Below, piece by piece: positions 2,911-29,996 of a stretch of 37,365 bases of DNA. A model generated the notes under the pieces. That model did not search any database, was not told the DNA's origin, and was given only the letters and a program-made list of their open reading frames with translations. The DNA is from an uncultured Clostridia bacterium (GTDB lineage Bacteria > Bacillota > Clostridia > TANB77 > CAG-508): NCBI GenBank assembly GCA_944386145.1, contig CALWZZ010000002.1:1-37365 (forward strand). The letters run 5' to 3'. The first letter of the stretch is position 1. Every line of letters starts with the position of its first letter. A program made the translations under genes and the position numbers.

Positions 2911-2958
2911 GGAAGTAAAAGAAACAAATGTAAGAGGAGAAAAAAGGAGAAAAACAAA

Positions 2959-11731: not shown

Positions 11732-12349
11732 ATGGTAGATACAATAGAAAAATTATGGGAGAAAATGCAAGAAGAATTTGACAAAATAAATGGAAAATTT
11801 GCAGAACACGACAAACGATTCGACCAAATAGACGCAAAATTTGCAGAACATGACAAACGATTCGACCAAATAGACGCAAAATTTGCAGAACACGATAAAC
11901 GATTTGACCAAATAGACAGCAAACTTGTAGAACATGACAAAAAATTTGCAGAACATGACAAACGATTCGACCAAATAGACGCAAAATTTGCAGAACATGA
12001 TAAACGATTTGACCAAATAGACAGCAAACTTGTAGAACATGACAAAAAATTTGCAGAACACGACAAACGATTCGACCAAATAGACAAAAAATTTGCAGAA
12101 CACGATAAACGATTTGATAAACAAGACAAAAAACTTGAAGAACATGATGGAAGATTTAACAGTATAGAAAACAAATTAGATATTATGGTAAATGTAAATT
12201 TGGCACAAATCTTAAATGAACAAACAAGAACAAGGACAGAATTAACGAAAAAAATAGATGATTATATGGAAAAAAATGAATTTGAACATAAAGAAATAAA
12301 TCTAAAATTAGCAGAAGATGAAGAAAAATATAAATATTTATCTGATTAA
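11732..12349 (+). CDS. Heptad-repeat coiled-coil protein of unknown function (about 10 units of KFAEHDKRFDQIDA)
   Basis: Strong RBS GGAAAGGAGGG. The repeats differ mainly by synonymous changes (CAC/CAT, GAC/GAT, TTC/TTT), which supports translation. A non-repetitive C-terminal tail follows. Confidence 0.8.
   Translation: MVDTIEKLWEKMQEEFDKINGKFAEHDKRFDQIDAKFAEHDKRFDQIDAKFAEHDKRFDQIDSKLVEHDKKFAEHDKRFDQIDAKFAEHDKRFDQIDSKLVEHDKKFAEHDKRFDQIDKKFAEHDKRFDKQDKKLEEHDGRFNSIENKLDIMVNVNLAQILNEQTRTRTELTKKIDDYMEKNEFEHKEINLKLAEDEEKYKYLSD
11795..12172 (+). repeat. In-frame 42-bp tandem repeat array with two 21-bp half units and a higher-order 105-bp duplication
   Basis: The unit AAATTTGCAGAACAYGAYAAACGATTYGACCAAATAGACGCA and its variants were read directly from the sequence. 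Confidence 0.9.
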
Positions 12350-13666: not shown

Positions 13667-13667
13667 A

Positions 13668-13795
13668 TTGGTTGGGAAATAATTACAATTTTGGCGTTGT
13701 CAAACTTCATTTGAAATTTAATCAACGTACAAAAAGTACGCCTCATAAATTTCAAATTCGTTTTCCTAGCCAAAATTTAATTCTTTTCCAACCAA
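13668..13795. repeat. 128-bp imperfect palindrome immediately after the LCP stop codon
   Basis: TTGGTTGG / CCAACCAA termini, TTTTGGC/GCCAAAA, TTTGAAATTTA/TAAATTTCAAA, and apex CGTACaaaaaGTACG. Confidence 0.75.
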
Positions 13796-13932
13796 GAGAG
13801 CTTTAGGAAAAGAATGTGAAAAAAATGAAAGATGATAAAATAAAAAACACAGACACAGATTATGATTAGAGTCAAAACTCTAATCATATTTCATGGCGAG
13901 AGAAAATATCTAAAAAGTGAGGAATTCAAGAG

Positions 13933-14433
13933 ATGAAAACAAACATATTTAGGGGAATTATGGCAATTTTACTCATTTGTACACTTTTTACAATATTTGA
14001 ATTTTCTAGTCAAAATGGAACACAATCAAAGGGAATTAGTACAAGAGTAACAGAATATATATTACAATTTAGTTCTCGATATCAAGAAGCAGATACAAAA
14101 GAAAAAACACAAATACGAAATAAAACAAATGCTATTATACGAAAATTAGCTCATTTTTCAATATACACACTATTAGGATTGTTTATGATGGGAATCATGA
14201 CGAGAACAAAATTAAGAGACAAATGGAGAATTTGCATAACAATAGGATTTGGAATATTATATGCAATTTTAGACGAATTCCATCAAAGTTTTTCACCTGG
14301 AAGAACACCGAAAGTTACAGATGTATATATTGATACTTTAGGTGTTATATTGGGGATTTTATTGGTATTGTTAGTAAGAGGAATTTATAAAAAAATACGA
14401 CAAAAAGATTACAATAATATTACAGAAAAATGA
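13933..14433 (+). CDS. VanZ family membrane protein
   Basis: Four TM segments and the VanZ signature DEFHQSFSPGRTPKVTDVYIDTLG. Confidence 0.85.
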   Translation: MKTNIFRGIMAILLICTLFTIFEFSSQNGTQSKGISTRVTEYILQFSSRYQEADTKEKTQIRNKTNAIIRKLAHFSIYTLLGLFMMGIMTRTKLRDKWRICITIGFGILYAILDEFHQSFSPGRTPKVTDVYIDTLGVILGILLVLLVRGIYKKIRQKDYNNITEK

Positions 14434-14465
14434 CAATAAAGTAGAAAAATGTTATAAAAAAGGTA

Positions 14466-14494
14466 TTTACATAATTGCTTGAGTGTAGTATAAT
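14466..14494 (+). promoter_or_regulatory. Candidate promoter of the polysaccharide operon (TTTACA-17-TATAAT)
   Basis: Hexamers at 14466-14471 and 14489-14494, about 50 nt upstream of the priming transferase gene. Confidence 0.6.
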
Positions 14495-14543
14495 GTTGTT
14501 GGCAAAAAAAGGAGAAAAATGAATTTTTAGGGGGAAATAAAAG

Positions 14544-15260
14544 ATGGATGTCAGAAATGATGTGATATTATCATATGGAGACGATAATATCGAAAATTTA
14601 GCACTGATACCTAAACATATCGAAAGAAGCAGAGCAATTTTAAGATTGGAAAAAATTGCTAAAAGATTTCTAGATATTTTAGGTGGTTTTTGCGGTCTAT
14701 TGGTATTAATACCATTGACGATTGGTATATGGATAGCTAATAAGGTATCAAAAGAAGACGGACCAGTATTTTTTACACAAGAAAGAATCGGACAAAACGG
14801 AAAAATATTTAAAATGTACAAATTTCGCTCTATGGTAGTGGGAGCAGATGAAAAGCTAAAACACTACTTAGAAGAAAATGAAGAAGCTAGAGAAGAATAC
14901 AAAAAATATAAAAAACTAAAAAACGACCCAAGAATAACAAAAATAGGAAAATTTATCAGAAAAACAAGCTTAGATGAATTTCCTCAATTTATAAACGTAC
15001 TAAAAGGAGAAATGAGTTTAGTAGGGCCACGACCATACTTACCAAGAGAAAAAGAAGAAATTAATGGATTCTTCAAATACATAACATCTTGCAAACCAGG
15101 TATTACTGGTTTATGGCAAACAAATGGAAGAAGCGATACAACATTTACAGAAAGATTAACTTTAGATATGGAATATTATTATAACCATACATTAAAGACA
15201 GATGTTAAATTGATTTATAAAACAGTAGAAAATGTAGTAAAAAAAGAAGGAGCTATATAG
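14544..15260 (+). CDS. Undecaprenyl-phosphate sugar phosphotransferase (small monotopic priming transferase, WbaP/CpsE C-terminal type)
   Basis: Bacterial sugar transferase motifs KFRSM, DPRITKIG.FIRKTSLDEFPQF.NVLKGEMSLVGPRP and PGITGLWQ. Confidence 0.9.
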   Translation: MDVRNDVILSYGDDNIENLALIPKHIERSRAILRLEKIAKRFLDILGGFCGLLVLIPLTIGIWIANKVSKEDGPVFFTQERIGQNGKIFKMYKFRSMVVGADEKLKHYLEENEEAREEYKKYKKLKNDPRITKIGKFIRKTSLDEFPQFINVLKGEMSLVGPRPYLPREKEEINGFFKYITSCKPGITGLWQTNGRSDTTFTERLTLDMEYYYNHTLKTDVKLIYKTVENVVKKEGAI

Positions 15261-15261
15261 A

Positions 15262-16119
15262 ATGACGATTGAGATTATTTGTCCTCTATATAAGGCAGAA
15301 AAGTATATAGAAAAATTACATAAAAGTCTTATAATGCAAGAAAAAGTAAATATTAGTAATATAAGGTATATTGTTACAAAAAGCAATGATAACACAACAA
15401 AGATTTTAGATGATTTAAATATAAACTATGAGGAAATTTTACCAAGTGAATTTTCGCATAGTTTAACGAGAGAAAAAGCAGCAAAAGAATCTAAAGCAGA
15501 TATTATTGTTTTTATTACACAAGATATCATAATAAAAGATAAATTATGGTTATATTATTTAACAAAAGATATCATTGAAGGAAAATGTGAAGAAACTTAT
15601 AGTAGACAGATTGCAAAGGATAATGGAATAGAAAAATATACTAGAGAAAGAAATTATCCAGAGCAATCTAGAATTTTTACAAAAAAAGATGTAGAAAATT
15701 TAGGTATTAAAGCATTTTTTTCATCAGATGCTTCATCAGCAATCAAAAGGGAGATATTCAACAAATTGAATTATTATGATGGAAAAAATTTACCTACAAG
15801 CGAAGATATGTATATTACATATAAACTAATTATGAATGGCTATACTGTAAAATATTGTGCAGATTCAGTAATTTACCATTCACATGATTACGGCATTAAG
15901 GAAAATTATAAAAAGTATTATGATATAGGTAAATTTTTTAAACAAAATAGTTATTTAAATGAATATCAAGTAACAAAAGCTGGTGGCGGAATGGCAAAAT
16001 ATATCTTGAAACGTGCTATTCAAGATAAAAATTGGAAAGTAATATTTAAGTTTTTTCCCAATATGGTTTCAAGATTTATCGGAATGCAGGTGGGAAAAAT
16101 GAGCAAAAAAGAGGGATAA
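15262..16119 (+). CDS. Glycosyltransferase family 2 (rhamnosyltransferase-like)
   Basis: N-terminal GT-A pattern (IICPLYKAEKYI), DxD-like region (SEDMY), tightly packed in the operon. Confidence 0.75.
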   Translation: MTIEIICPLYKAEKYIEKLHKSLIMQEKVNISNIRYIVTKSNDNTTKILDDLNINYEEILPSEFSHSLTREKAAKESKADIIVFITQDIIIKDKLWLYYLTKDIIEGKCEETYSRQIAKDNGIEKYTRERNYPEQSRIFTKKDVENLGIKAFFSSDASSAIKREIFNKLNYYDGKNLPTSEDMYITYKLIMNGYTVKYCADSVIYHSHDYGIKENYKKYYDIGKFFKQNSYLNEYQVTKAGGGMAKYILKRAIQDKNWKVIFKFFPNMVSRFIGMQVGKMSKKEG

Positions 16120-16120
16120 C

Positions 16121-17290
16121 ATGAATGTCAAAACAGTAGTTATTGTAAATGACTTTAACTATGTTCAAGGAGGAGCAAGTAAAGTTGCTATAGATACAGC
16201 GAAGATGTTAAAAGAAGCAAATCTTGATGTTTACTTCTTTTCTGCTGTTCACAAAAAAGAAGAGGAAATAGAAGGAATAACATATATTTCGACAAATCAG
16301 CAAGAAGCATTGAAAGAAAAGAATAAATTAAAAGGTATTTTTAATGGAATATACAATTTTAAAGCAAAAAAAGAATTAAAAAAATTATTAGAAACATTAG
16401 ATAAAGAAACAACAGTAATTCATGTTCATGGGTGGACAAAGGCATTATCTAGTAGTGTATTTGATATTGCATTTAAAATGAAATTTAAAGTGGTATTAAC
16501 ATTACATGATTACTTTACAGCATGCCCTAATGGTGGATATTTTAACTATCCACAAAATGAAATATGTCATTTAAAACCACTAAGTTGGAAATGTATAAAA
16601 TGTAATTGTGATTCAAGAAATTATGGATTTAAATTATATAGAGTACTAAGGCAATTTGTTCAAAACAAAATTGTCAAATTAAATGATAAACTAGAATATG
16701 CTATTTCTATTTCAGATTTTAGTGAAAAAATCTTAAAACCAACATTAGGGAAAAATACAAAAATTACAAAAATATATAATCCGATAGATATAGACGAAAA
16801 TATAGAAAAAATTGACCCAAGTAAAAATGAGTATTACCTATATGTAGGCAGAGTATCAAAAGAAAAAGGTGTTGATTTATTCTGCCAAGCTATAACTGAT
16901 TTGAATTATAAAGGAATTGTTGTGGGAGACGGCGACGAAAAAGAAAAATTAGAAAAACAATTTCCTAATATAGAGTTTGTTGGTTGGAAAAATAAAGATG
17001 AAGTGAATGAATATATGAAATGTGCTAGAGCTTTGATTTTTCCTAGTAGGTGGTATGAAACAGCAGGTTTAACAGTTTTAGAAGCACAGGCAATTGGAAT
17101 ACCTTGCATAGTGAATGAATGTTGTGCAGCAAAAGAATTTGTTAGTGAGAAAAATGGTTATTTATTCAGTAATGTTAATGAACTAAAAGAACAAATAGTA
17201 AAAGTAAATAGTAGAAAAGAATTTATTGTAGAAAGACTTTATAAAAATGATTATAAATATGAAATAATGCATTTTTTAAATAGTATTTAG
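16121..17290 (+). CDS. Glycosyltransferase family 4 (GT-B fold)
   Basis: C-terminal GRVSKEKG and the EX7E region (SRWYETAGLTVLEAQAIGIPCIV). Confidence 0.85.
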   Translation: MNVKTVVIVNDFNYVQGGASKVAIDTAKMLKEANLDVYFFSAVHKKEEEIEGITYISTNQQEALKEKNKLKGIFNGIYNFKAKKELKKLLETLDKETTVIHVHGWTKALSSSVFDIAFKMKFKVVLTLHDYFTACPNGGYFNYPQNEICHLKPLSWKCIKCNCDSRNYGFKLYRVLRQFVQNKIVKLNDKLEYAISISDFSEKILKPTLGKNTKITKIYNPIDIDENIEKIDPSKNEYYLYVGRVSKEKGVDLFCQAITDLNYKGIVVGDGDEKEKLEKQFPNIEFVGWKNKDEVNEYMKCARALIFPSRWYETAGLTVLEAQAIGIPCIVNECCAAKEFVSEKNGYLFSNVNELKEQIVKVNSRKEFIVERLYKNDYKYEIMHFLNSI

Positions 17291-17305
17291 GTGAGGGAAG
17301 ATATA

Positions 17306-17929
17306 ATGCAAATAAAAAAAATATTACTAAAAATATACAAAAGTACAATCGGTGTTGTAAATAATAAAAGATTAAAGAATAAAAATTTTACAATTATTTC
17401 AAATAATTGTTGGGCTGGTATTTTCTATCGAAATAATAATTTGGAATACTTATCACCTACCTTGGGATTATTTTTTATGGCAGAAGATTATATAAAATTT
17501 ATATATAATATAAAATACTATATTAATGAAGATTTACAATTTATCAATATAGAAGATTCAAAATATAAAAATTATTTAAAAAAATTAAATTATAATAGTC
17601 CAATAGGTAGAATTGATGACATTGAAATAATGTTTTTGCACTATAGTTCTGAAAAAGAAGCTAAAGAAAAGTGGGATAGAAGAAAACAAAGAATTAATTG
17701 GGATAATATTATATATAAATTTTCTGATCAGAATATGTGTACATATGAACATATAAAAAAATTTGATGAGTTTAAAGCGAAAAATAAAATATTATTTACT
17801 ACAAGAAAATACGAAGGAATTAATTCTATACAAATAAAAGAATTTAGTAAAAGTGAAAGTGTAATGGACGATATAAAAACATATAAGAAATATTTTAATT
17901 TTTATAAATATTTAAATAAACTAAATTAA
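17306..17929 (+). CDS. DUF1919-family exopolysaccharide biosynthesis protein
   Basis: Signature FTIISNNCWAGIFY. The ATG at 17306 follows GAGGGA. The GTG at 17291 in the ORF track is a less likely start. Confidence 0.7.
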   Translation: MQIKKILLKIYKSTIGVVNNKRLKNKNFTIISNNCWAGIFYRNNNLEYLSPTLGLFFMAEDYIKFIYNIKYYINEDLQFINIEDSKYKNYLKKLNYNSPIGRIDDIEIMFLHYSSEKEAKEKWDRRKQRINWDNIIYKFSDQNMCTYEHIKKFDEFKAKNKILFTTRKYEGINSIQIKEFSKSESVMDDIKTYKKYFNFYKYLNKLN

Positions 17930-17942
17930 AAGGAGAAAAAAA

Positions 17943-19082
17943 ATGAAAATAATTACATTTTATTTACCACAATTTCATGAGATACCAGAAAATAACGAAT
18001 GGTGGGGAAAAGGGTTTACTGAATGGGTTAATGTAAAGAAGGCACAACCATTATTTGATGGACACTATCAACCAAGAATTCCAAAAGATAAAAACTATTA
18101 TAATCTTTTAGATAAAAAAACTATTAAATGGCAGGCTGAAATAGCAAAAAAATATGGTATATATGGTTTTTGCTTTTATCATTATTGGTTTGATGGACAT
18201 ATGTTACTTGAAAAACCCATTGAAATTTTTTTGCAAAATAAAGATATAGATATTAATTATTGTATTTCGTGGGCTAATGAGGATTGGACAAATGCATGGG
18301 CTAATAACAGTAATAAAACTTTAATTTCTCAAAATTATGGCTCAAAAAAAGAATGGATTAATCATTTCGATTATTTTTTGAGATTTTTTAAAGATGATAG
18401 ATATATAAAAATAAATAATAAGCCTTTACTAATTATATATAGACCAGAATTAATAGGATGTCTAAATGAAATGCTTGATACTTGGAATGAATTAGCAATA
18501 GAAAATGGCTTTGATGGAATTACATTTGCATATCAGCATTTTAATTATGGGAATATGAAAAATAAAGATGATTCTAGATTTAGTTATCAAATAGAATATC
18601 AACCTTCATATGCTATGAAAGAAAGTGAAAATAATAGATTATTATTATTTTTAAAAAGAATAAAAAATAAAATAGATGTTTTTTCTCAAAAAATATTTCA
18701 TAAAAGTATACAAGTATCTACATTAAAAAATAATTTAAAAAAATACGATTATGATGAACTATGGAATAACATTTTAAAAAGAAATCCAGAAAATGAAAAA
18801 AATGTTCCAGGAGCATTTGTTGGATGGGACAATACGCCAAGGAAAAATAACAGAGGAAGTGTTGTTGTTAATAATACACCAAGTAAATTCGAAAATTATA
18901 TGGTAAAACAAATTAATAATGCTAAAGATAAATATCATAAAGATTTTATTTTTATGTTTGCATGGAATGAATGGGCTGAAGGTGGATATTTAGAACCTGA
19001 TGAAAAATATAATTATGAATATTTACAAGCAATAAAAAATGCATTAAATAAAACAAATGAAAATCCATATACGAAAGGATAA
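17943..19082 (+). CDS. WbsX-like (GH99-like domain) glycosyltransferase
   Basis: N-terminus FYLPQFHEIPENNEWWGKGFTEWVNV and the later WNEWAEG motif are typical of the WbsX family. Confidence 0.8.
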   Translation: MKIITFYLPQFHEIPENNEWWGKGFTEWVNVKKAQPLFDGHYQPRIPKDKNYYNLLDKKTIKWQAEIAKKYGIYGFCFYHYWFDGHMLLEKPIEIFLQNKDIDINYCISWANEDWTNAWANNSNKTLISQNYGSKKEWINHFDYFLRFFKDDRYIKINNKPLLIIYRPELIGCLNEMLDTWNELAIENGFDGITFAYQHFNYGNMKNKDDSRFSYQIEYQPSYAMKESENNRLLLFLKRIKNKIDVFSQKIFHKSIQVSTLKNNLKKYDYDELWNNILKRNPENEKNVPGAFVGWDNTPRKNNRGSVVVNNTPSKFENYMVKQINNAKDKYHKDFIFMFAWNEWAEGGYLEPDEKYNYEYLQAIKNALNKTNENPYTKG

Positions 19083-19085
19083 AAA

Positions 19086-20171
19086 ATGAAAGGGATAGCT
19101 TTTATAGGAATAATTTTATATGGTTTAATATTAAAAAATAAAAAAAAATTTTGGCTTTTATGTTTAATATTTTATATAATCATGATTTTAACTACTACAG
19201 GTCAGGCAGATTATATTAATTATGAAAATTATTATAATTTGTTAAATAATGGGACTGTGGAAATTTCATATATGGGTATGTCTATTTTGTGGGGCAAATT
19301 GTGTTTATTGTGTGGAAAATTAAATTTGACATATACAGGAATGTCTTTAATTGTAATTATTATTTCAATGATATTAATACATTCCAGAATTAAAAAAATA
19401 AAATTTTGCGAAAATTTATTTTGGGCTTTTTATTTAATCTTTCCAGGTTTAATTCAATGTATACAGCTAAGATTTTTTCTTGGTACATCTGTTGTTTTTT
19501 GGGGATTAATACCTTTTTTAAAAAAAGAGCCTAAAAGTATTATAGTTTTTTGCATTTCAGTATTTATTGCATATTTTATACATTCATCATGTATAATATT
19601 TTTAATTTTTTTATTTCTACCATTATTTGACAAATATGGAAATAAAAAAACATTATTTTTTGCTTTTACTTGTTTTGTTGTAATGTTTATTGGAAAAGAT
19701 TATATTATTAAAATAATTGAAAATATAATTCCGGTTGTAAAGTTTGAAAGATATTTTATGTCAGATATATCACAAACAACTACATCGTGGTTTATAAAAA
19801 TATTAGTTATATGGTTTATTTCATATATAGGAGCTAGATATTTTTATTTACAAATTAGTAAAAAAAATATTCAAGATGAAAATAAAGAATTTCTTTTAAG
19901 ATGTGTAAATGCTATTTCATTGTTATTAATTACAACATTTTTTTTAATATATGATTCAAATTTTCATCGTTTTTTAGAAATGGGATATATGTTATTTTAT
20001 ATTATATTTGCTTATTATTTTTCTAATTATAAAATTGAAAATAAAATGAGAGGTTTTACGATTTTGCTGATTCTTATTTTATTATGCTTAATTACATATA
20101 ATTATACTCCAATTGAAACAGTTATAAAACCATTTTTTACATACAGTGGTGTTAATTCAATTTTTAAATAA
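19086..20171 (+). CDS. EpsG/Wzy-like polysaccharide polymerase (polytopic membrane protein)
   Basis: About 10 predicted TM segments, extremely hydrophobic, and located in a Wzx-dependent locus. No strong sequence motif was recognised. Confidence 0.6.
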   Translation: MKGIAFIGIILYGLILKNKKKFWLLCLIFYIIMILTTTGQADYINYENYYNLLNNGTVEISYMGMSILWGKLCLLCGKLNLTYTGMSLIVIIISMILIHSRIKKIKFCENLFWAFYLIFPGLIQCIQLRFFLGTSVVFWGLIPFLKKEPKSIIVFCISVFIAYFIHSSCIIFLIFLFLPLFDKYGNKKTLFFAFTCFVVMFIGKDYIIKIIENIIPVVKFERYFMSDISQTTTSWFIKILVIWFISYIGARYFYLQISKKNIQDENKEFLLRCVNAISLLLITTFFLIYDSNFHRFLEMGYMLFYIIFAYYFSNYKIENKMRGFTILLILILLCLITYNYTPIETVIKPFFTYSGVNSIFK

Positions 20172-20191
20172 GTATATAGAAAGGATTTTTT

Positions 20192-21118
20192 ATGGATAAA
20201 TATAAAGTTGAAGAAAATATTGAAAAAATAAATAAGGAATATCTAGAAATTGTATATTCTAAAGAATACAAATTAGGTAGAAGAATGTATAAAATAAAAG
20301 ATTCATTAAAAAAAATTAATCTTAAAGAATTAATTAATTATTATAAGTCATATAGAATGCAAAAAAAATTAAATAAAATTTCTGGTAATCAAGAATTTAA
20401 AGAAATTAAATATAATACCGGAAATAAAATATATACTAATTATGCAGTCTATACATGTATCACAAATAATTATGATACAATCTATGATCCATATTTTTGT
20501 GATACTGAATTTATTTTATATACTGATAAAATAAATCCGAATTATAATCAAATATGGCAACAAAGAGATATTCCAGATAATGCTAAAAGACTTAAGGGAA
20601 ATAAAATTAATAGATATTGCAAAATGCATCCATTTGAGCTTCTTGGGGATTATGATTTTTCGATATACATTGATGGTAATGTACAAGTCATCTCGAATAT
20701 TAGTGGGCTATGTGATATAGCTAAAAATTCTAAATGTGGAATAGCTATGCATCAACATCCAAATAGAAATTGTGCCTATGTAGAGGCTAAAGTATGTGAA
20801 GTATGCCATAGAGGAAACATAGATAAAATTAAACAACAGATGAAAAAATATGAAAAGGAAAATTTTCCTAAAAATTTTGGACTTTGTGAGGCTACAATAA
20901 TAGTATGTGATTTAAAAAATCCAATAGCAAAAAAAATAATGTCAGATTGGTATGATGAGTTTTGTAAATCAGAAAGTGAAAGAGATCAATTAGCATTACC
21001 ATACGTTATATGGAAAAATGGTTATAAAATGAGTGATATAGGTATTTTGGGTAACAATTTATTATTTAACCCACTTTTTAGAATAAAAAATTTAGGAGAT
21101 CATAAGATATTGAGGTGA
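20192..21118 (+). CDS. DUF616-family putative glycosyltransferase
   Basis: Motifs AVYTCITNNYD and FSIYIDGNVQV resemble DUF616 proteins of O-antigen/capsule loci. Confidence 0.65.
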   Translation: MDKYKVEENIEKINKEYLEIVYSKEYKLGRRMYKIKDSLKKINLKELINYYKSYRMQKKLNKISGNQEFKEIKYNTGNKIYTNYAVYTCITNNYDTIYDPYFCDTEFILYTDKINPNYNQIWQQRDIPDNAKRLKGNKINRYCKMHPFELLGDYDFSIYIDGNVQVISNISGLCDIAKNSKCGIAMHQHPNRNCAYVEAKVCEVCHRGNIDKIKQQMKKYEKENFPKNFGLCEATIIVCDLKNPIAKKIMSDWYDEFCKSESERDQLALPYVIWKNGYKMSDIGILGNNLLFNPLFRIKNLGDHKILR

Positions 21119-21121
21119 GAT

Positions 21122-22012
21122 ATGATATTTTTTAGCAAGTTAATTATAAAAATATGTACAATTTTAAGAATTAAAAATTATATACCAGATAAAATTTATT
21201 TACATTTAATGTATTATATTTTAACGAATAAAAAATTAGATTTAGATAATCCAAAGACGTTTAATGAAAAATTACAATGGCTAAAGTTACATAATAGAAA
21301 GCCAGAATATACAAGAATGGTAGATAAATATGAAGTAAAAAATTATATTACTAATATTATTGGAAAAGAATATGTAATTCCTACATTAGGAATTTATGAA
21401 AAATGGGAAGATATAGATTGGGATAAATTACCAAATCAATTTGTTATAAAATGTACACATGATTCTGGAGGAATTGTAATAGTTAAAGACAAAAATTCTT
21501 TTGATTTTAATAAAGCAAAGAAAATAATAAAAAAATCGTTAAAAAATAATTATTATTGGAATTGCAGAGAATGGCCATATAAAAATGTAAAACCTAGAAT
21601 TATAATCGAGGAATATATGGAAGATAAATTTTATCATGAGCTAATTGATTACAAAATATATGCTTTTAATGGAAAATGCGATTATGTAATGGTATGTTTT
21701 GATAGATTTAAAGATAATGTGAAATTTATTTATTTTGATAGAGACTGGAACATAAAAAAAACATTTAGCAATGATGGAATAAAATATGGAGATAATATAA
21801 ATCTAAAAAGACCTAATAATTTAGATTTAATGTTTAAATATGCTGAAGAATTATCTAAAAATATACCTTTTGTGAGAGTGGATTTTTATGAAGTAAATGG
21901 TAAATTATATTTTGGAGAATTTACATTCTTTCCAAGTGGAGGATTTGATGACACTAGAACAGATGATGCTACAAAATATTTGAATGAACAATTAAAAATA
22001 TCAGAAAAGTAA
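21122..22012 (+). CDS. TupA-like ATP-grasp enzyme
   Basis: NPKTFNEKLQWLKL, FVIKCTHDSGG and RVDFYEVNGKLYFGEFTFFP are typical of the ATPgrasp_TupA family. Confidence 0.75.
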   Translation: MIFFSKLIIKICTILRIKNYIPDKIYLHLMYYILTNKKLDLDNPKTFNEKLQWLKLHNRKPEYTRMVDKYEVKNYITNIIGKEYVIPTLGIYEKWEDIDWDKLPNQFVIKCTHDSGGIVIVKDKNSFDFNKAKKIIKKSLKNNYYWNCREWPYKNVKPRIIIEEYMEDKFYHELIDYKIYAFNGKCDYVMVCFDRFKDNVKFIYFDRDWNIKKTFSNDGIKYGDNINLKRPNNLDLMFKYAEELSKNIPFVRVDFYEVNGKLYFGEFTFFPSGGFDDTRTDDATKYLNEQLKISEK

Positions 22013-22217
22013 AAATTGTTCATATATATCAATGGATTTTAAATAATAGAACAACATTTGAAACATTAGTTTATTTATAATAATGTTTTGGATAAAAATA
22101 GTTTTAATAATTAAATAAAAAGTTTTTGACATATGTAAATAAAAAATAGATTAAAAAAATATTTGATATATTAACAATAAATGAAGATAATTTAATATTA
22201 GATGAGGTGAAAAGATA

Positions 22218-23174
22218 ATGAAAACAGTTGGTTTTTTAAAGAGTGATAAAGAAAATGAAAATAGAATATGTTTATTACCAGAAGACATAAACGTTATACA
22301 AAATAAAAAATATATTTATCTTGAAGAAGGATATGGCAAAAACTTAAATATAGAAGATAATGAATATATTAAAGCAGGTGTGAATGTTGTTGATAAACAG
22401 GAAATATTTGATAAAAATATTATAGTAGAACCTAAAATTGGTGATGCACAGTATTTGAAAAAATTGAAAAATAAAACTATATTTGGTTGGATACATGCAG
22501 TACAAAATAAAGCAATAACAGATATTTTAATAAAAAACAAATTAACAGTATATGCTTGGGAAGAAATGTTTGAAGAAGGTAGACATATTTTTTGGAGAAA
22601 TAATGAAATAGCAGGAGAAGCAGCAGTGATGCATGCGTTATTAATACATGGAATAATGCCATATAATTTAAAAGTAGCTATTATTGGAAATGGAAATGTT
22701 TCTAGGGGAGCATATAGAGTATTGACTCAATTAGGTTGTAATATAACTGTTTATAATAGAAAAATGGAAAAATTATTATCTAAAGAGATTGCAAAATACG
22801 ATATTATTGTTAATGCAGTTTTATGGGATGTTAATAGAAAGGATCACATTATATATAAAGAAGACTTAATGAAAATGAAAAAAGGTAGTTTAATTATAGA
22901 TGTAAGTTGCGATCATAATGGTGCAATAGAAACAAGTAAACCTACAACTATAGAAAAGCCAACATATTGGATTGATGGGGTTGAACACTATGTTGTTGAT
23001 CATACACCATCATTAGTATATAGAACAGTTTCTAAAGAATTGTCTGGAGAAGTATGCAAATTTATAGATTATTTCATAACAGACAGTAAAAATGATGTTT
23101 TAAATTCAGCACTTATTGTGAAAAATGGGGTAATACTTGATAATAATATAAATGAATATCAGAAAAGAAAATAA
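22218..23174 (+). CDS. AlaDH/PNT-fold dehydrogenase resembling N5-(carboxyethyl)ornithine synthase
   Basis: 318 aa. N-terminus GFLKSDKENENRICLLPEDI and dinucleotide fold VAIIGNGNVSRGA. Shorter than alanine dehydrogenase. Preceded by a 205-bp AT-rich gap. Confidence 0.6.
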   Translation: MKTVGFLKSDKENENRICLLPEDINVIQNKKYIYLEEGYGKNLNIEDNEYIKAGVNVVDKQEIFDKNIIVEPKIGDAQYLKKLKNKTIFGWIHAVQNKAITDILIKNKLTVYAWEEMFEEGRHIFWRNNEIAGEAAVMHALLIHGIMPYNLKVAIIGNGNVSRGAYRVLTQLGCNITVYNRKMEKLLSKEIAKYDIIVNAVLWDVNRKDHIIYKEDLMKMKKGSLIIDVSCDHNGAIETSKPTTIEKPTYWIDGVEHYVVDHTPSLVYRTVSKELSGEVCKFIDYFITDSKNDVLNSALIVKNGVILDNNINEYQKRK

Positions 23175-23201
23175 CATTATTGAGAGGAATATGATAATTT
23201 T

Positions 23202-24722
23202 ATGAGAAGTAAAAAAGCAATAAAAAATATTATATCATCTGTATTTCAACAAATAGTAACTTTTGTATGTGGGTTAATTGTTCCTAGAGCTATAATAGGT
23301 ACATTTGGTTCAAGTGTAAATGGACTACTATCTTCTATTACACAGTTTTTATCATATATTACGTTATTAGAAGCAGGTATTGGACCAGTAATAAAATCGG
23401 CATTATATAAACCAATAGCTCAAAAAGATAAATACGAAATCGAAAAAATCTTAAAAGCAAGTCAAAGGTTTTTCAGGATAATTTCAGCTATTTTTATAGT
23501 GTATTTAATAATTTTATGTTTTATATATCCATTAATAGTAGCAAATCAATTTGATTATATGTTTACAGTTTCATTGATATTGATAATTTCAATAAGTACA
23601 TTTGCAGAATATTTTTTTGGTATGGTTTACAAATTATATTTACAAGCAGAACAAAAAACTTATGTTACTTCCATTGTACAAAGTGCTACAACAATATTAA
23701 ATGCAGTATTAATTGTTGTATTAATAAAATGTAATGCTAATATACAGATAGTCAAATTAGTAAGTGCTTTTGTTTTTGTGTTAAGACCAATAGTTCAGAA
23801 CATATATGTAAAAAGAAAATATAATATTAATTTTAAAGAAGTAAAGGAAAAATATGATTTAAAGCAAAAATGGGATGGCTTAGCACAACATATTGCAGCA
23901 GTAGTTCACAATAATACTGATGTAGCGGTATTGACAATATTTTCAAATACAGCAGAAGTTTCTGTATATACAGTTTATCTTTTTGTGATAAATGGTGTAA
24001 AAAATATAGTACAAGCATTTACTGGAGGCGTAGATGCATCATTTGGAGATATGATAGTAAAAGGAGAAAAAGAGGCATTAAATAGAAGTTTTAGGACATA
24101 TGAAATGTTTTATTATACAATTATAACAATTGTATATATTGTTACAATGATTATGATATTACCATTTATTACGGTATATACTAAAGGAATAACAGATGTG
24201 AATTACTATCGACCAGGTTTTGCTATGTTAATAATTTTGGCTGAATTATTTTGGTCTATTAGATTACCATATAGTTCAATAACATTGGCGGCGGGACATT
24301 TTAAAGAGACAAGAAAAGGAGCTTGGGTCGAAGTATTTTCTAATTTGATCATTTCTATAGTATTAGTATTTAATTTTGGAATGATAGGTGTGGCAATTGG
24401 TACACTAGTAGCAATGTTTATAAGAACAATAGAATTTATATATCATTCATCAAAATATATTTTAGGTAGAAGCATTTTGGATTCAGTTAAAAGAATAATA
24501 TTATTATTTTTAGAATTGCTTCTATTAGTGCCAATAGGTATATTTATATGTAGTAAATTTAATATTGAAGAATATTCATCATGGATTATAATAGCTGCTG
24601 TAGTGACAATTGTTATTGCAGTGATAGTTCTTCTTATTAATTTACTTATTTATAGAAATGATGCTAAATCTGTCTTAGAAATATTAAAAAAGAATTTTAT
24701 TAAGAAAGAGGTAAAAGAATAG
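23202..24722 (+). CDS. wzx: Wzx-type polysaccharide flippase (MOP superfamily)
   Basis: 506 aa, about 12-14 TM segments, typical N-terminal KKAIKNI....Q. Confidence 0.8.
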   Translation: MRSKKAIKNIISSVFQQIVTFVCGLIVPRAIIGTFGSSVNGLLSSITQFLSYITLLEAGIGPVIKSALYKPIAQKDKYEIEKILKASQRFFRIISAIFIVYLIILCFIYPLIVANQFDYMFTVSLILIISISTFAEYFFGMVYKLYLQAEQKTYVTSIVQSATTILNAVLIVVLIKCNANIQIVKLVSAFVFVLRPIVQNIYVKRKYNINFKEVKEKYDLKQKWDGLAQHIAAVVHNNTDVAVLTIFSNTAEVSVYTVYLFVINGVKNIVQAFTGGVDASFGDMIVKGEKEALNRSFRTYEMFYYTIITIVYIVTMIMILPFITVYTKGITDVNYYRPGFAMLIILAELFWSIRLPYSSITLAAGHFKETRKGAWVEVFSNLIISIVLVFNFGMIGVAIGTLVAMFIRTIEFIYHSSKYILGRSILDSVKRIILLFLELLLLVPIGIFICSKFNIEEYSSWIIIAAVVTIVIAVIVLLINLLIYRNDAKSVLEILKKNFIKKEVKE

Positions 24723-25696
24723 TGACCACATATTTCATTACCGGCGGAGCTGGATTTATCGGTTCAACATTAAGCCAAAAATTAATCGAACAAGGAAACA
24801 AAGTAGTAGCAATAGACAATTTTTGTGACTTTTACAATCCAAAAATAAAAGAAAATAATGTAAAAGAATTACTACAAAATGAAAATTTTAAATTATACAG
24901 AGCAGACATACGAGATAGAAAAGCCCTAAAAGAAATATTTGATGAAAATCAAATTGACATAGTCATGCACCTAGCCGCTATGGCAGGTGTTAGACCATCA
25001 ATAGAAAATCCGATATTGTATCAAGAAGTAAACTGTATGGGAACGCAAAATATTTTAGAAGAAATGAAAGAACATAATGTAAAAAATGGCGTGTTTGCAT
25101 CTTCTAGTAGTGTTTATGGAAATTGTAAAGAAGTACCTTTTAGAGAAGATATGATAGTAGATTATGCCATAAGTCCATATGCAGCAACTAAAAAAGCAAA
25201 TGAGGTAATGGCACATGTATATCATAAATTATTTGATATGAATATTGTTATGCTAAGATTTTTTACAGTTTATGGTCCAAAACAGAGACCTGACTTAGCA
25301 ATCAATAAATTTACAAGATTAATGTTAGAAGGAAAAGAAATACCAATGTTTGGCGATGGTACAACGTCAAGAGATTATACATATATTGATGATATAGTTG
25401 ATGGAATTATAAAATCTTGTAATTATTGTATGAACAATCAAGAGGTGTATGAAATTCTAAATATCGGAAATTCATCTCCAACAACATTAAAAGAAATGAT
25501 AAATACCATTGGACAAGCTTTAGGAATAGAACCAAAAATAAAACAATTGCCAATGCAACCAGGAGATGTGGATAGAACTTATGCAGATGTTTCAAAAGCG
25601 AAAACATTAATTGGATATGAACCAAAAACAACATTTAGGGAAGGAATAGAAAATTTTGTAAAATGGTATAAAGAAAATAAAAATTTATATGAATAA
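24722..25696 (+). CDS. NAD-dependent sugar-nucleotide epimerase, probably UDP-glucuronate 4-epimerase
   Basis: GGAGFIGS Rossmann motif and YAATKKANE (YxxxK). The GTG start overlaps the wzx stop. Adjacent to ugd. Confidence 0.8.
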   Translation: MTTYFITGGAGFIGSTLSQKLIEQGNKVVAIDNFCDFYNPKIKENNVKELLQNENFKLYRADIRDRKALKEIFDENQIDIVMHLAAMAGVRPSIENPILYQEVNCMGTQNILEEMKEHNVKNGVFASSSSVYGNCKEVPFREDMIVDYAISPYAATKKANEVMAHVYHKLFDMNIVMLRFFTVYGPKQRPDLAINKFTRLMLEGKEIPMFGDGTTSRDYTYIDDIVDGIIKSCNYCMNNQEVYEILNIGNSSPTTLKEMINTIGQALGIEPKIKQLPMQPGDVDRTYADVSKAKTLIGYEPKTTFREGIENFVKWYKENKNLYE

Positions 25697-25713
25697 TAGG
25701 GGGAACATAAAAA

Positions 25714-27018
25714 ATGAAACAATATAAAATAGCGGTAGCTGGAACAGGATATGTAGGATTAGTAGCAGGTGTATGTTTTGCAGAAAAAGGACATCAAGTC
25801 ATTTGTGTTGATGTTGATGAAAGAAAAGTAGAGACTATGAAACAAGGAATTTGTCCAATATATGAAGAAGATTTAGAAGAATTAATGCAAAAAAACTATA
25901 AAGAAGGAAGATTGGATTATACAACAGATTACAAAAATGCCTATAAAGATGCAGATGCCATATTTATAGGTGTAGGAACACCAGAACAACCAGATGGTTC
26001 AGCAAATTTAAGTTACATAGCGACTGTGTCAAGACAGATTGCAGAAAGCATAGAAAAAGATTGTTTAGTGGTTGTAAAATCAACTGTACCAATTGGAACA
26101 AATGATAAGGTAGAACAATTTATTAAAGACTTTTTGGTAAATGATGTAAAAGTAGAAGTGGCAAGTAATCCAGAATTTTTAGCCCAAGGTACAGCGGTAA
26201 AAGATACATTGCAAGCAAAAAGAATTATTATCGGAACAGAAAGTAAAGAAGCTGAAAAGAAATTAATGGAAATATATGAACCATTTGAACTACCAATTGT
26301 TTCAGTAAATAGAAGAAGTGCAGAAATGATAAAATATGCGTCAAATGATTTTCTAGCCCTAAAAATTTCATATATGAATGATATTGCGAATCTTTGTGAG
26401 TTGGTAGGTGCCAATATTGAAGATGTGGCAAAAGGTATGTCATATGACCCACGTATAGGTGCAAAATTCTTAAATGCTGGTATTGGTTATGGAGGCAGTT
26501 GTTTCCCAAAAGATACAAAGGCATTAAAATATTTAGCAAAACAACATGGGTATAAATTAAAAACAGTAGAAGCAGCAGTAGATGTTAATGCAGAACAAAA
26601 AGTAAAATTATTTAAAAAAGCGTCAGAAAGAATGATTACATTTAATGGGGTAAAAATTGCCATATTAGGATTAACTTTCAAACCAGGAACAGATGATTTA
26701 AGAGAAGCACCATCAATTGATAATGTGGAATTATTGTTAAAAAATAATGCAAATAATATTTATGCATATGACCCAGTAGGAGAGGATAATTTTAAAAAGA
26801 GATATCCAACAGAAATAAATTATGTTTCAACACCAGAAGAAGCATTAGAGGGAGCGAATATATGCTTTATATTCACAGAATGGAATGAGATAAAAGCAAT
26901 TAAACCAGAAACATATAAAAAATTAATGAAAACACCATTAGTGTATGATGGAAGAAATATATATGATGTAAACGAAATGAAAAATGCAGGAATAGAATAT
27001 TATTCAATTGGAAGATAA
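25714..27018 (+). CDS. ugd: UDP-glucose 6-dehydrogenase
   Basis: GTGYVGL Rossmann motif, catalytic GGSCFPKD, 434 aa. Confidence 0.93.
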   Translation: MKQYKIAVAGTGYVGLVAGVCFAEKGHQVICVDVDERKVETMKQGICPIYEEDLEELMQKNYKEGRLDYTTDYKNAYKDADAIFIGVGTPEQPDGSANLSYIATVSRQIAESIEKDCLVVVKSTVPIGTNDKVEQFIKDFLVNDVKVEVASNPEFLAQGTAVKDTLQAKRIIIGTESKEAEKKLMEIYEPFELPIVSVNRRSAEMIKYASNDFLALKISYMNDIANLCELVGANIEDVAKGMSYDPRIGAKFLNAGIGYGGSCFPKDTKALKYLAKQHGYKLKTVEAAVDVNAEQKVKLFKKASERMITFNGVKIAILGLTFKPGTDDLREAPSIDNVELLLKNNANNIYAYDPVGEDNFKKRYPTEINYVSTPEEALEGANICFIFTEWNEIKAIKPETYKKLMKTPLVYDGRNIYDVNEMKNAGIEYYSIGR

Positions 27019-27094
27019 AAAATTATAAAATTTAATTATTTTGTCCATTTCATAAGCATAACCCTAAAACAGATTACCTTTTTTACGAAACATG

Positions 27095-27123
27095 TTGCAA
27101 AACTATCTTAAAAACTGTATACT
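27095..27123 (+). promoter_or_regulatory. Candidate internal promoter for wzz-wze (TTGCAA-17-TATACT)
   Basis: Hexamers at 27095-27100 and 27118-27123 in the 154-bp gap after ugd. Confidence 0.5.
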
Positions 27124-27172
27124 AATAAAGTATCAATGCAAAAGAAAAAAAGAAAGAATAAAAGGAGGAAAT

Positions 27173-27898
27173 ATGGAAGAAATAGACTTAAAAGAATTAT
27201 TTGAAATATTTTGGCATAAGAAAGTTCAAATTCTATTAATCATATTAATTTTTATGGTAATTGGCGTAATTTATTCGGTAGGATTTGTAACACCAATGTA
27301 TAGTTCATCAACCACATTACTTTTAGCAGGAACAGCAAGTAGTACAGAAGAGCAGTCAACAAATACAATAACAACTGCAGACTTATCAATCAACTCTCAA
27401 TTGGTTTCAACATATAGTGAATTGGTAAAAAGCAAAAATATTTTAGGACAAGTTATTTCAAATTTAGGAATGAACATAGATGAAGAGCAATTAAAACAAA
27501 ATGTACAAGTTACATCAGTGGAAGATACAGAATTAATCAGAATAACAGTTTCTAACGAAAATGCAGAATATGCTGCTAGAATTGCTAATGAAATTGCAAA
27601 TGTATTTAAAGAAAAAATTGCAAAGGAAATATATAATATCAATAATGTACATATTGTAGATGAAGCAACTGTAGAAACAGAACCTTCAAATGTTAATCAT
27701 ATAAGAGATATTGCTATCTTTGCATTTATTGGTGCAGTTATTGCTGTTATGTATGTATTAATTGCTAATATGCTAGATACAACAGTAAAAACACAAGAAG
27801 ATATTGAAAAAAGTATAAAAATACCAGTCTTAGCATCTATTCCAATGTATGATATGGATATGGAAAAACTTAAGAAAAGAAAAGGAGGTAGAAGATAA
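27173..27898 (+). CDS. Wzz/CpsC-type chain-length regulator (BY-kinase transmembrane modulator)
   Basis: The ATG at 27173 follows AAAGGAGGAAAT. Two TM segments flank an extracellular domain. The stop overlaps the kinase start. Confidence 0.85.
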   Translation: MEEIDLKELFEIFWHKKVQILLIILIFMVIGVIYSVGFVTPMYSSSTTLLLAGTASSTEEQSTNTITTADLSINSQLVSTYSELVKSKNILGQVISNLGMNIDEEQLKQNVQVTSVEDTELIRITVSNENAEYAARIANEIANVFKEKIAKEIYNINNVHIVDEATVETEPSNVNHIRDIAIFAFIGAVIAVMYVLIANMLDTTVKTQEDIEKSIKIPVLASIPMYDMDMEKLKKRKGGRR

Positions 27899-28920
27899 TG
27901 AAAAAAGAATTAATTGCGCATAGAGATCCGAAGTCTCCTGTTTCTGAAGTTTTTAGAACATTAAGAACCAATATTCAATTTATGAATACCAATAATAAAT
28001 TAAAAACATTATTAGTAACATCTACATTACCAGGTGAAGGAAAAAGCTGGGTAACATCCAATTTAGCTGTTACTTTTGCACAAGCAGGAAAAAAAGTAGT
28101 TTTAGTTGATGCAGATATGAGGAAAGGAAGACAATATACCATTTTTGAGGTTTCTCCAAGACCAGGACTTTCAAATTATCTATCTGGGTTTGATAGTAAC
28201 ACAGGAGAAGAAATTTCAGAAGATTTAGCGAATTATATACAAGATACGCAAATTCCAAATCTATACATTATACCAGCTGGAAATATACCACCAAACCCAT
28301 CAGAATTATTAATTTCAACAAAAATGGTTAGTTTATTAGATAGATTAAAAGAATTATGTGATTTAGTCATTATTGATGGAACACCTTGTGAATTGGTAAC
28401 AGATTCAATTATACTTTCTAGAATTGTTGATTCTACAGTAATTGTAACTGCACATAAACAAACAAAGAAAGATGATTTACAAAAAATTGTTACCAATATT
28501 CAAAATGTAGGTGGAAAAATTGCAGGTATTGTGTTAAATAAAATACCAGTATCTGCTAAGAAATATGAACAATCATATTATTATGGCTCAACAACAATGA
28601 AAAATCCAAACATGAGACCTAAAACAAATAGAGTACCAGCGAATAATCGACTTAATATGTCTAGACAGAATAAAGTAGAAGATATGAAAAGAAGAGTAAG
28701 ACCAGAAAATCCACAAGCTTCAAGAAATAATCGAGAAATGCAAAATGCTAATCATAAAATAAATAGAAATACGACAAATCATGAACAGCCTAAATCATTA
28801 GACAATAAAATAAAGATAGATACCTCTGGAGATGTATCTTTGGAAAAAACAACAGATATTTTAAATCAAATTAATGCTTATCTAGATGAAGAAAAGAAAA
28901 ATCTAAATAATAAATCTTAA
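27898..28920 (+). CDS. CpsD/CapB-type tyrosine autokinase (BY-kinase) with a long C-terminal extension
   Basis: Walker A GEGKSW, Walker A' VLVDADMRK, Walker B LVIIDGTP, Tyr cluster YEQSYYYG, followed by about 110 N/R/K-rich residues. Confidence 0.9.
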   Translation: MKKELIAHRDPKSPVSEVFRTLRTNIQFMNTNNKLKTLLVTSTLPGEGKSWVTSNLAVTFAQAGKKVVLVDADMRKGRQYTIFEVSPRPGLSNYLSGFDSNTGEEISEDLANYIQDTQIPNLYIIPAGNIPPNPSELLISTKMVSLLDRLKELCDLVIIDGTPCELVTDSIILSRIVDSTVIVTAHKQTKKDDLQKIVTNIQNVGGKIAGIVLNKIPVSAKKYEQSYYYGSTTMKNPNMRPKTNRVPANNRLNMSRQNKVEDMKRRVRPENPQASRNNREMQNANHKINRNTTNHEQPKSLDNKIKIDTSGDVSLEKTTDILNQINAYLDEEKKNLNNKS

Positions 28921-28923
28921 TAC

Positions 28924-28945
28924 AAGAGACTTTAACAAGTCTCTT
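28924..28945 (+). terminator. Hairpin after the BY-kinase gene (9-bp stem, TAAC loop), weak terminator
   Basis: AAGAGACTT taac AAGTCTCTT followed by CTTCTTC. Confidence 0.45.
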
Positions 28946-28998
28946 CTTCATGGCATATACAAAAATCGTCAAAATTGGACAAAATTTGCAAATACATA

Positions 28999-29027
28999 TT
29001 GAAAAAATATTAAGATAACGGTATACT
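28999..29027 (+). promoter_or_regulatory. Candidate promoter for the phosphatase gene (TTGAAA-17-TATACT)
   Basis: Hexamers at 28999-29004 and 29022-29027. Confidence 0.5.
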
Positions 29028-29071
29028 ATTATAGACACTGCAAAAAACGAAGAAAAAGGAGCAAAAGAAAA

Positions 29072-29854
29072 ATGATAGACTTTCATTCACATATATTACC
29101 AAATATTGATGATGGTTCAAGAAGTATAGAAGAAACATTTAATCTAATTAAAGAAGCAGAAAAAGCAGGATTTGAGGCAGTTATATCTACCTCACATTAT
29201 ATGGAAAATTATTATGAAACAGATGTACCAGAAAGAGAAGTATGGGTCAAAGCAATTTTAGAAAATTTAAAAACAAAAAATATTAATACCACTTTATATT
29301 TAGGAAATGAGATTTATTTTACAAATAATATTATTGAATTGTTAGAAAAGAGAAAGGCATCAACCATTAATGATACAAGTTATGTCTTGTTTGAATTACC
29401 TTTAAATGCGGAACCTATGAACTTATATGATGTGGTATATGATATGTTGCAATATAAATTAGTACCAGTTTTAGCACATCCAGAAAGATATAGTTTTGTA
29501 CAAAAGGAACCAGACTTGGTGTATGATTTAATAGAAAAAGGGGTATTAATGCAAGCAAATTATGGCAGTATCATTGGACAATATGGTGAAAAGGCACAGA
29601 TGATTGTTAGAAGATTTTTTGAGAATAATATGATACATTTTTTGGGCTCAGATGTCCATAGACAAAATACAATTTACCCAAAAATTCCTCAAATATTGGA
29701 TGAGATAGCAGATATTATCGGAGAAGAAAAGTTAGAGGAATTAACAACGACAAATCCAAAATTAGTTTTAAGTAACAAAAAGATTGAAATCGACGAACCA
29801 TTTGATTTTAAATTATCCTTAAAAGAAAAAATTATTATGAATTTTAAGAAATAA
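29072..29854 (+). CDS. CpsB/YwqE-type PHP-family protein-tyrosine phosphatase
   Basis: N-terminus MIDFHSHILPNIDDG, plus AHPERY and GSDVH metal-binding motifs. Confidence 0.9.
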   Translation: MIDFHSHILPNIDDGSRSIEETFNLIKEAEKAGFEAVISTSHYMENYYETDVPEREVWVKAILENLKTKNINTTLYLGNEIYFTNNIIELLEKRKASTINDTSYVLFELPLNAEPMNLYDVVYDMLQYKLVPVLAHPERYSFVQKEPDLVYDLIEKGVLMQANYGSIIGQYGEKAQMIVRRFFENNMIHFLGSDVHRQNTIYPKIPQILDEIADIIGEEKLEELTTTNPKLVLSNKKIEIDEPFDFKLSLKEKIIMNFKK

Positions 29855-29996
29855 TAGCATTGTTGAAGAATTTGAATAATATAAAAAGAAATAGAATTTC
29901 ATCAAATAAGTTACCAAAGATTTCATGATAAATAAAAAGGGACAATAGGATTTGAAAATAAAATTAAAATTGATTTTAAGGAAAGGAAGTTGAACA

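Follow-up and report, generated by a model that had tools for sequence, protein, structure and literature searches.

A TupA-family ligase gene paired with a CEOS-like gene in a Clostridia capsule locus: a candidate cassette for carboxyethyl-amino-acid amides of uronic acids

Introduction

What would a relative of the opine synthases do beside an ATP-grasp ligase in the middle of a capsule locus? The question is raised by contig CALWZZ010000002.1 (assembly GCA_944386145.1) of an uncultured Clostridia bacterium, whose positions 1 to 37,365 were analysed here (hereafter the window); the source is a 1.63-Mb metagenome-assembled genome (MAG) that is 74% complete. At 21122-23174 of the window, the gene of a TupA-family ATP-grasp ligase is followed by that of an alanine dehydrogenase (AlaDH)-fold protein resembling N5-(carboxyethyl)ornithine synthase (CEOS). 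An initial annotation of this DNA proposed that the two genes could underlie an opine-type substituent on the uronic acids of a Gram-positive capsule. Here, we examine both proteins, their relatives, and the linkage of their genes in other genomes, and we conclude that the pair is probably a decoration cassette giving a carboxyethyl-lysine or carboxyethyl-ornithine amide on glucuronic acid (GlcA) or galacturonic acid (GalA) of the capsule.

Such substituents have chemical precedents, and the initial annotation was right in stating that carboxyethyl-lysine (Cet-Lys) amides of GalA or GlcA occur in Proteus and Providencia. Providencia rustigianii O14 contains N-epsilon-(1-carboxyethyl)-N-alpha-(D-galacturonoyl)-L-lysine (PMC10609480), while GalA6(R-Cet-L-Lys) and GlcA6(S-Cet-L-Lys) are found in Proteus mirabilis O13 and Proteus myxofaciens O60, respectively (PMC5560731, table S4). 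In these polymers, as in the product type predicted here, an opine amino acid is amide-linked via its alpha-amine to a uronic acid; they differ in being Gram-negative O-antigens that are known from chemistry only. The Proteus gene-cluster study assigned no genes to the carboxyethyl-lysine substituent of the O13 (KY710693) and O60 (KY710739) clusters, and no gene assignment for carboxyethyl-lysine substituents of glycans was found in the literature searched. For comparison, serogroup O3ab has GalA6-L-Lys without a carboxyethyl group, and O30 has three glycosyltransferase homology groups in common with O60. The structural literature on such substituents also names P. alcalifaciens O23 and Shewanella fidelis KMM 3582.

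Results

The dehydrogenase-fold enzyme

Both open reading frames (ORFs) of the pair are present as initially annotated, and their families were confirmed by Pfam (Table 1) and by predicted folds. The second gene encodes a protein with the N- and C-terminal AlaDH/PNT domains, which reaches 103.6 bits with the AlaDH equivalog model TIGR00518, far under its cutoff of 391.85; among curated NCBIfam models, none for CEOS gave a match. As reference CEOS, annotated lactococcal plasmid genes (that of L. cremoris among them), which are themselves sequence-annotated, were aligned with three true AlaDHs. Identity of the window protein to L. cremoris CEOS is 33.8% (32-34% across the lactococcal homologues), compared to 24-30% for the three AlaDHs. 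Two deletions of approximately 12 and 21 residues are common to the window protein and lactococcal CEOS, and they explain lengths of about 317 residues compared to about 370 for AlaDHs. All 16 clade members compared have the same five residues, R16, K73, H93, E115, and D232, which align with AlaDH and CEOS positions; from work on the Mycobacterium tuberculosis AlaDH, we take them to be pyruvate-binding and catalytic positions. After the GxGxxG motif, the window protein has YNRK and the lactococcal proteins have YYRK, both non-acidic, versus an acidic residue in AlaDHs and YDR in Gram-negative members of the clade. Judging by this motif, the cofactor of the window enzyme may be NADPH.

In a maximum-likelihood tree, whose sequences include no transhydrogenase subunit and which carries a long-branch warning, lactococcal CEOS and the window-type proteins group together (support 100/100) with the AlaDHs outside. 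The window-type proteins form a separate subclade beside CEOS (83/80), and three TupA-linked CEOS-like proteins group with each other in the same tree (90/99). The predicted structure of the window enzyme has a predicted local distance difference test (pLDDT) score of 91.3 and a template modelling (TM) score of 0.88 to M. tuberculosis AlaDH; since, to our knowledge, no CEOS structure has been solved, the fold alone cannot decide the function.

Lactococcal CEOS (ceo, EC 1.5.1.24) joins pyruvate to the side-chain amine of ornithine or lysine at the expense of NADPH, and the moiety it forms is the same as that carried by Proteus and Providencia glycans. The window enzyme is similar to it in the AlaDH/PNT fold, in length (318 versus 310-313 residues), and in the two deletions, the catalytic positions, and the non-acidic cofactor motif. 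The two differ in that an 11-residue insertion of the lactococcal proteins is absent from the window-type clade, which has a C-terminal extension. Moreover, lactococcal ceo genes are free-standing, with no ligase or glycan genes beside them, whereas window-type genes almost always lie next to an ATP-grasp ligase gene. Relatives at 58-73% identity are distributed patchily in Clostridia, Gammaproteobacteria, and Bacteroidota, their public CEOS names being automatic annotation, and a second MAG assembly contains an identical copy of the window gene.

A different role for an AlaDH-fold enzyme has to be considered at this point. It might supply an ordinary amino acid, for example L-alanine from a keto acid and ammonia, and the ligase would then add this amino acid (or another amine) to the uronic acid with no opine involved. 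The fold and all catalytic residues of the enzyme are indeed those of an AlaDH; alanine, lysine, threonine, and serine amides of uronic acids are far commoner than carboxyethyl-lysine, and TupA relatives occur without any CEOS-like partner. Nevertheless, we regard this explanation as quite unlikely: the AlaDH equivalog is missed widely, the deletions are specific to CEOS, the grouping with CEOS is fully supported, the supply of alanine requires no dedicated enzyme, and a tight linkage to ligases across phyla (described below) points to a dedicated, unusual substrate. A true AlaDH was rejected on the equivalog score, the length with its two deletions, and the low identity. By these sequence characters, the enzyme is placed not among AlaDHs but in an uncharacterised sister clade of CEOS, and we infer its keto-acid and amine substrates from this kinship. 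The clustering with true AlaDHs that the initial annotation had named as refuting its proposal was not seen in this tree, in which no transhydrogenase subunit was included; the protein clustered with lactococcal CEOS instead, and the resemblance to CEOS stands as far as the grouping and the two common deletions are concerned; it is looser than supposed in that the identity is only 34% and the clade is a separate one.

The ligase

The ligase matches PF14305 (ATPgrasp_TupA) with an E-value of 6.8e-66 and 222.7 bits (cutoff 25) over 239 of 241 profile positions, and it is the single match of this family in the whole source genome. When its AlphaFold model (pLDDT 91.1) was compared with PDB folds, the top 50 were all ATP-grasp ligases (Ddl, LysX/ArgX, RimK, and VanA) with a probability of 1.0 and TM scores of only 0.40-0.49; a sequence search of the PDB revealed no relative of the ligase among solved structures. 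Residues K110, R252, D254, and E266 are invariant across 13 TupA ligases from loci with a CEOS-like gene. In a tree of TupA ligases, the window protein falls within a clade of five CEOS-adjacent members (98/99), where the label CEOS-adjacent was also given to the ligases of two loci (L001 and L093) that are in-locus rather than immediate neighbours.

The name-giving member of PF14305 is TupA of alkaliphilic Bacillus, which is involved in teichuronopeptide, a polymer joining glucuronic acid and amino acids. This case differs from the window in that the evidence is genetic only and that another polymer and another reaction than side-group amidation of a repeat unit are concerned. A closer precedent is the C-terminal TupA-like domain of Cj1438 from the Campylobacter jejuni HS:2 capsule. 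Experimentally, this domain uses ATP to form an amide at the C6 carboxylate of GlcA (PMC11800379, citing Riegert et al. 2022). At the level of family, it is like the window ligase in having a TupA-like ATP-grasp fold and being encoded in a capsule locus. The window ligase, however, is free-standing and paired with a CEOS-like enzyme, whereas the Cj1438 domain is joined to a GT2 glycosyltransferase and has ethanolamine phosphate or serinol phosphate as its substrate. By analogy, the window ligase is predicted to use ATP for amidating a uronate at C6.

Linkage of the two genes in other genomes

Eight contexts from named or long contigs, belonging to three phyla, were available, and in all of them (8/8) the CEOS-like gene adjoins an ATP-grasp ligase gene in a polysaccharide locus with a uridine diphosphate (UDP)-sugar 6-dehydrogenase. 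A RimK-type ATP-grasp gene directly follows the CEOS-like gene in the six Gram-negative carriers, while a TupA gene precedes it in two Firmicute MAGs, as in the window. In addition, a metagenome scan with the family alignment yielded 80 loci, those most like the window, whose neighbouring genes were annotated with home-made hidden Markov models built from few Pfam-verified seeds. Both flanks could be seen in 40 loci, and in 33 of these an ATP-grasp gene is the immediate same-strand neighbour. The window layout with TupA upstream was found in 23 metagenomic loci, and RimK downstream in 19. Nineteen loci extend for 8 kb or more to each side; of these, 18 contain at least three polysaccharide families and 14 contain a UDP-sugar 6-dehydrogenase. 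The co-occurrence of the two families inside polysaccharide loci, which the initial annotation had named as a check of its proposal, is therefore strongly positive. Moreover, the order of ligase, CEOS-like enzyme, 506-residue protein, epimerase, and UDP-glucose 6-dehydrogenase (Ugd) is repeated in loci L078 and L071, with 59% and 56% identity, respectively, between their CEOS-like proteins and that of the window.

In a sample of 400 genomes of the window's own phylum, a CEOS-like gene was detected in six and TupA in 19 (7/401 and 20/401 when the window genome is included). Because both genes are this rare, chance adjacency is negligible. Of the four strong carriers in this sample, none has TupA, and in three a RimK-type gene adjoins the CEOS-like gene. 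The ligase partner varies, in that RimK-type or ATPgrasp_ST ligases take the place of TupA elsewhere.

Some further observations were made on the pair. P0231, a protein of 700 residues on one 2.7-kb Logan contig, consists of a CEOS-like part (residues 1-317) and a RimK-type ligase (320-700) with a two-residue joint, and it may be either a natural fusion or the product of a lost stop codon. Support from such Rosetta-stone fusions was considered and given little weight, P0231 being the one clean CEOS-RimK case and two longer proteins being truncated chimeras. In other loci, the CEOS-like gene often directly adjoins a PGA_cap (CapA-like) gene (L008, L028, L045, L053, L057, L070, L074, L086, L089, and L098), which may be a third component of the cassette; the window has no PGA_cap gene. 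A protein search from the Cobetia homologue showed no Proteus or Providencia among the top 120 matches listed, and the Acinetobacter pair of CEOS-like and RimK genes gave no match in 5,426 E. coli genomes, a blastn search whose sensitivity is too low to be informative.

Several results weigh against the proposed cassette function. The metagenomic counts come from loci selected for likeness to the window and from home-made neighbour models, and seven of the 40 assessable loci have no adjacent ATP-grasp gene. The fourth strong carrier of the phylum sample (G201) has no recognisable ATP-grasp ligase, its CEOS-like gene lying beside a HAD hydrolase. CEOS-adjacent TupA ligases are clustered and not monophyletic, the tree requiring at least three changes, by which a single lineage of such ligases is ruled out, and close TupA relatives were found in genomes without a CEOS-like gene. 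On the side of the dehydrogenase, the window-type clade is separate from a lactococcal homologue that is only 33.8% identical and is itself known from sequence alone. Finally, two Firmicute genomes (L019:9482-11609 and L020:8661-10699) carry a RimK-type/CEOS-like pair that is not part of any polysaccharide locus: one pair is located among an IS200 transposase, an M20 peptidase, and a true AlaDH, and the other between holA and spoIIP/murJ/lepA. In view of these two pairs and of the G201 gene, the CEOS-like clade is not exclusively glycan-associated, and the two pairs suggest a non-glycan target or a free product.

These non-glycan contexts bear on another explanation, according to which an opine-type compound is made and the acceptor is not a uronic acid: the carboxyl group of the opine itself might be ligated to an amino sugar, the target might be another envelope component, or the compound might be a free metabolite. 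Within 10 kb, a UDP-sugar 6-dehydrogenase is absent from five of the 19 long loci, and an N-linked alanopine is on record on Qui4N of Providencia alcalifaciens O35 (PMC10609480). We consider this explanation rather unlikely for the window, which has no aminotransferase or amino-sugar pathway genes and in which the ligase and CEOS-like genes lie mid-way in a single-strand capsule gene run, with Ugd and a UDP-GlcA 4-epimerase-like gene downstream in a block that recurs elsewhere. Moreover, Cj1438, the one characterised TupA-like enzyme documented here, activates the carboxylate of the sugar. With respect to the pair as the basis of an opine-amidated uronic acid, the proposal of the initial annotation thus gains from the clade, the co-occurrence, and the Cj1438 precedent, and it is narrowed by the fact that TupA is not an obligate partner, by the occurrence of the clade outside glycan loci, and by a substituent that is itself predicted.

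The spacer between the two genes

The spacer between the ligase and CEOS-like genes is the longest within the packed gene run 14544-27018. It contains a ribosome-binding site (GAGGTG) 8 nt ahead of the ATG and a promoter-like TTGATA-17-GATAAT at 22163-22191 that matches at 10 of 12 positions, such promoter-like sites being no commoner here than in shuffled sequence; a terminator was sought in the 205 bp and none was found. In 23 other loci, the same pair has a median spacing of 15 bp and includes five 4-bp overlaps. The GC content at third codon positions (GC3) of both genes equals that of the neighbouring genes. The gap had been read as a hint of a separately acquired module, and this reading was not supported: because GC3 equals that of the neighbours and the pair is tightly linked elsewhere, the gap is no evidence of separate acquisition of the CEOS-like gene, an idea rejected on the same two grounds.

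A spacer atypical of this pair, in a locus whose centre is very AT-rich and variable, might also indicate a mosaic capsule locus in which this pair is carried along inactive or is made up of neighbours unrelated in function. However, both ORFs are full length compared to their homologues and contain every invariant residue, both structure models are confident, the pairing is kept in dozens of diverged loci, and the second MAG assembly has the identical gene; we therefore hold this explanation to be very improbable.

The surrounding capsule locus

The pair lies in a capsule locus of Gram-positive type comprising the genes 12623-31361, all on one strand (Table 1). This locus has the gene set of a Wzx/Wzy-dependent Gram-positive capsule (cps) locus, of which the Wzx member is only plausible. 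The initiating phosphotransferase is followed, in order, by GT2, GT4, DUF1919, a WbsX glycosyltransferase, the EpsG-type polymerase, and a TOD1/MUCI70-like transferase, and then by the TupA ligase and CEOS-like genes. Downstream of the latter are the genes of a 506-residue membrane protein, a short-chain dehydrogenase/reductase (SDR) epimerase, Ugd, the CpsC/D/B homologues, and a phosphohexomutase-family (PGM/PMM) enzyme.

Table 1. Coordinates of the ligase/CEOS-like pair, its spacer, and other features of the capsule locus in the window
Feature	Position	Strand	Details
LCP protein	12623		first gene of capsule locus, VanZ next
Initiating phosphotransferase (Bac_transf)	14544		capsule locus
EpsG-type (Wzy-type) polymerase	19086		capsule locus
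TOD1/MUCI70-like glycosyltransferase, candidate galacturonosyltransferase	20192-21118	+	PF04765, 37 bits (cutoff 21.4), partial coverage
TupA-family ATP-grasp carboxylate-amine ligase, predicted uronate C6 amidoligase	21122-22012	+	296 residues, PF14305
AT-rich spacer	22013-22217		205 bp, 14.6% GC
CEOS-like AlaDH-fold NAD(P)H-dependent enzyme, predicted N-(1-carboxyalkyl)-lysine/ornithine synthase	22218-23174	+	318 residues, PF05222 + PF01262
Polytopic membrane protein, putative Wzx-type flippase	23202-24722	+	506 residues
SDR epimerase, probably UDP-glucuronate 4-epimerase making UDP-GalA	24722-25696	+	PF01370, PF16363
UDP-glucose 6-dehydrogenase (Ugd/TuaD-like), uronic acid source	25714-27018	+	all three UDPG_MGDP_dh domains
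Wzz/CpsC	27092		capsule locus
CpsD	27898		capsule locus
CpsB	29072		capsule locus

Ugd scores 453.5 bits with the nucleotide-sugar dehydrogenase subfamily model TIGR03026 (cutoff 189.8) and 514.9 bits with the TuaD equivalog, under the cutoff of 700. The SDR epimerase has PDB matches with 5u4q at 291 bits; among functionally labelled structures, the 6ZL6/6ZLA set, which we take to be the UDP-glucuronate 4-epimerase of Bacillus cereus, is best with 204 bits (WbgU 165, GalE about 125), and the protein is under the GalE equivalog cutoff. From these matches, it is probably a UDP-glucuronate 4-epimerase.

The 506-residue protein had been called wzx. It has about 10-12 hydrophobic segments and no match in a Pfam search, and some of its nearest Atlas clusters carry Polysacc_synt/MatE, which makes a Wzx-like function plausible, if less definite than the original name implied. 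Homologues at 20-52% identity were detected by tblastn in seven other CEOS loci; in L078, L071, and L058, the gene immediately follows the CEOS-like one. On the other side of the pair, the TOD1/MUCI70-like gene ends 3 bp upstream of the ligase gene. MUCI70 founded GT116, a family of plant UDP-GalA-dependent GalA transferases, and the assignment of the window protein as a candidate GalA transferase is a weak one. As a travelling part of the cassette, this gene was ruled out because it is present in one locus only.

The locus is bounded by housekeeping genes, with ftsEX, three PcsB-like peptidase genes, and argS upstream, and asd and feoB downstream. Directly after ftsE/ftsX, the region 1678-5494 encodes three tandem PcsB-like coiled-coil M23 peptidase paralogues (410, 392, and 436 residues), followed by a CtpB-like S41 peptidase. 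A coiled-coil-like ORF of 205 residues at 11732-12349, between argS and the LCP gene, has only sub-threshold Pfam matches, is overlapped by antisense ORFs, and may not be a real gene. Within the locus, the conserved ends are less AT-rich than the central variable part, where the DUF1919 gene (19.4% GC) and the EpsG-type polymerase gene (20.3% GC), at 17291-20171, are the most AT-rich genes. The CpsD-type kinase at 27898-28920 (340 residues) and a MazF/PemK-like toxin at 36601-37158 (185 residues, with the domain at residues 36-140) seem longer than typical family members.

Discussion

What, then, would the pair do in this capsule? We infer the following sequence of steps. Ugd and the 4-epimerase-like enzyme would provide UDP-GlcA and probably UDP-GalA. 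The CEOS-like enzyme would carry out a reductive condensation between an alpha-keto acid (most likely pyruvate) and the side-chain amino group of lysine or ornithine; NADPH is the probable reductant, and an N-omega-(1-carboxyethyl) amino acid would be released. The TupA-family ligase would convert the C6 carboxylate of GlcA or GalA on the growing lipid-linked repeat unit into an acyl phosphate and then join the activated carboxylate to the alpha-amine of this amino acid. The order might also be reversed: ligation of lysine or ornithine would then precede carboxyethylation of its free amine. After decoration, the co-travelling Wzx-like protein would export the unit, and the EpsG-type Wzy would polymerise it.

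A broader and more tentative proposal, which we regard as possible without yet being probable, is that a small, horizontally mobile cassette, composed of an opine synthase from a distinct CEOS-related clade and an interchangeable TupA, RimK-type, or ATPgrasp_ST ligase, and often equipped with its own flippase, generally underlies the N-carboxyalkyl amino-acid substituents of bacterial surface glycans in at least three phyla, a genetic basis not described so far, and that it also modifies non-glycan targets where it lies outside glycan loci. Opine substituents of O-antigens have been known from nuclear magnetic resonance for decades, and the cassette offers two candidate enzymes for them. Its cultured carriers include Acinetobacter radioresistens, Psychrobacter immobilis, Myroides (M. 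odoratimimus among them), Capnocytophaga cynodegmi, and Sphingobacterium lactis.

If the proposed function is correct, the capsule side chain of this gut-type Clostridia bacterium would bear an amine together with carboxylates, and opine synthases would reach beyond free metabolites to the decoration of glycans. Side groups that shape charge, serotype, and recognition by phages and the immune system would then be predictable from sequence in gut and clinical bacteria, and the amidoligase/reductase pair would become available for glycoengineering.

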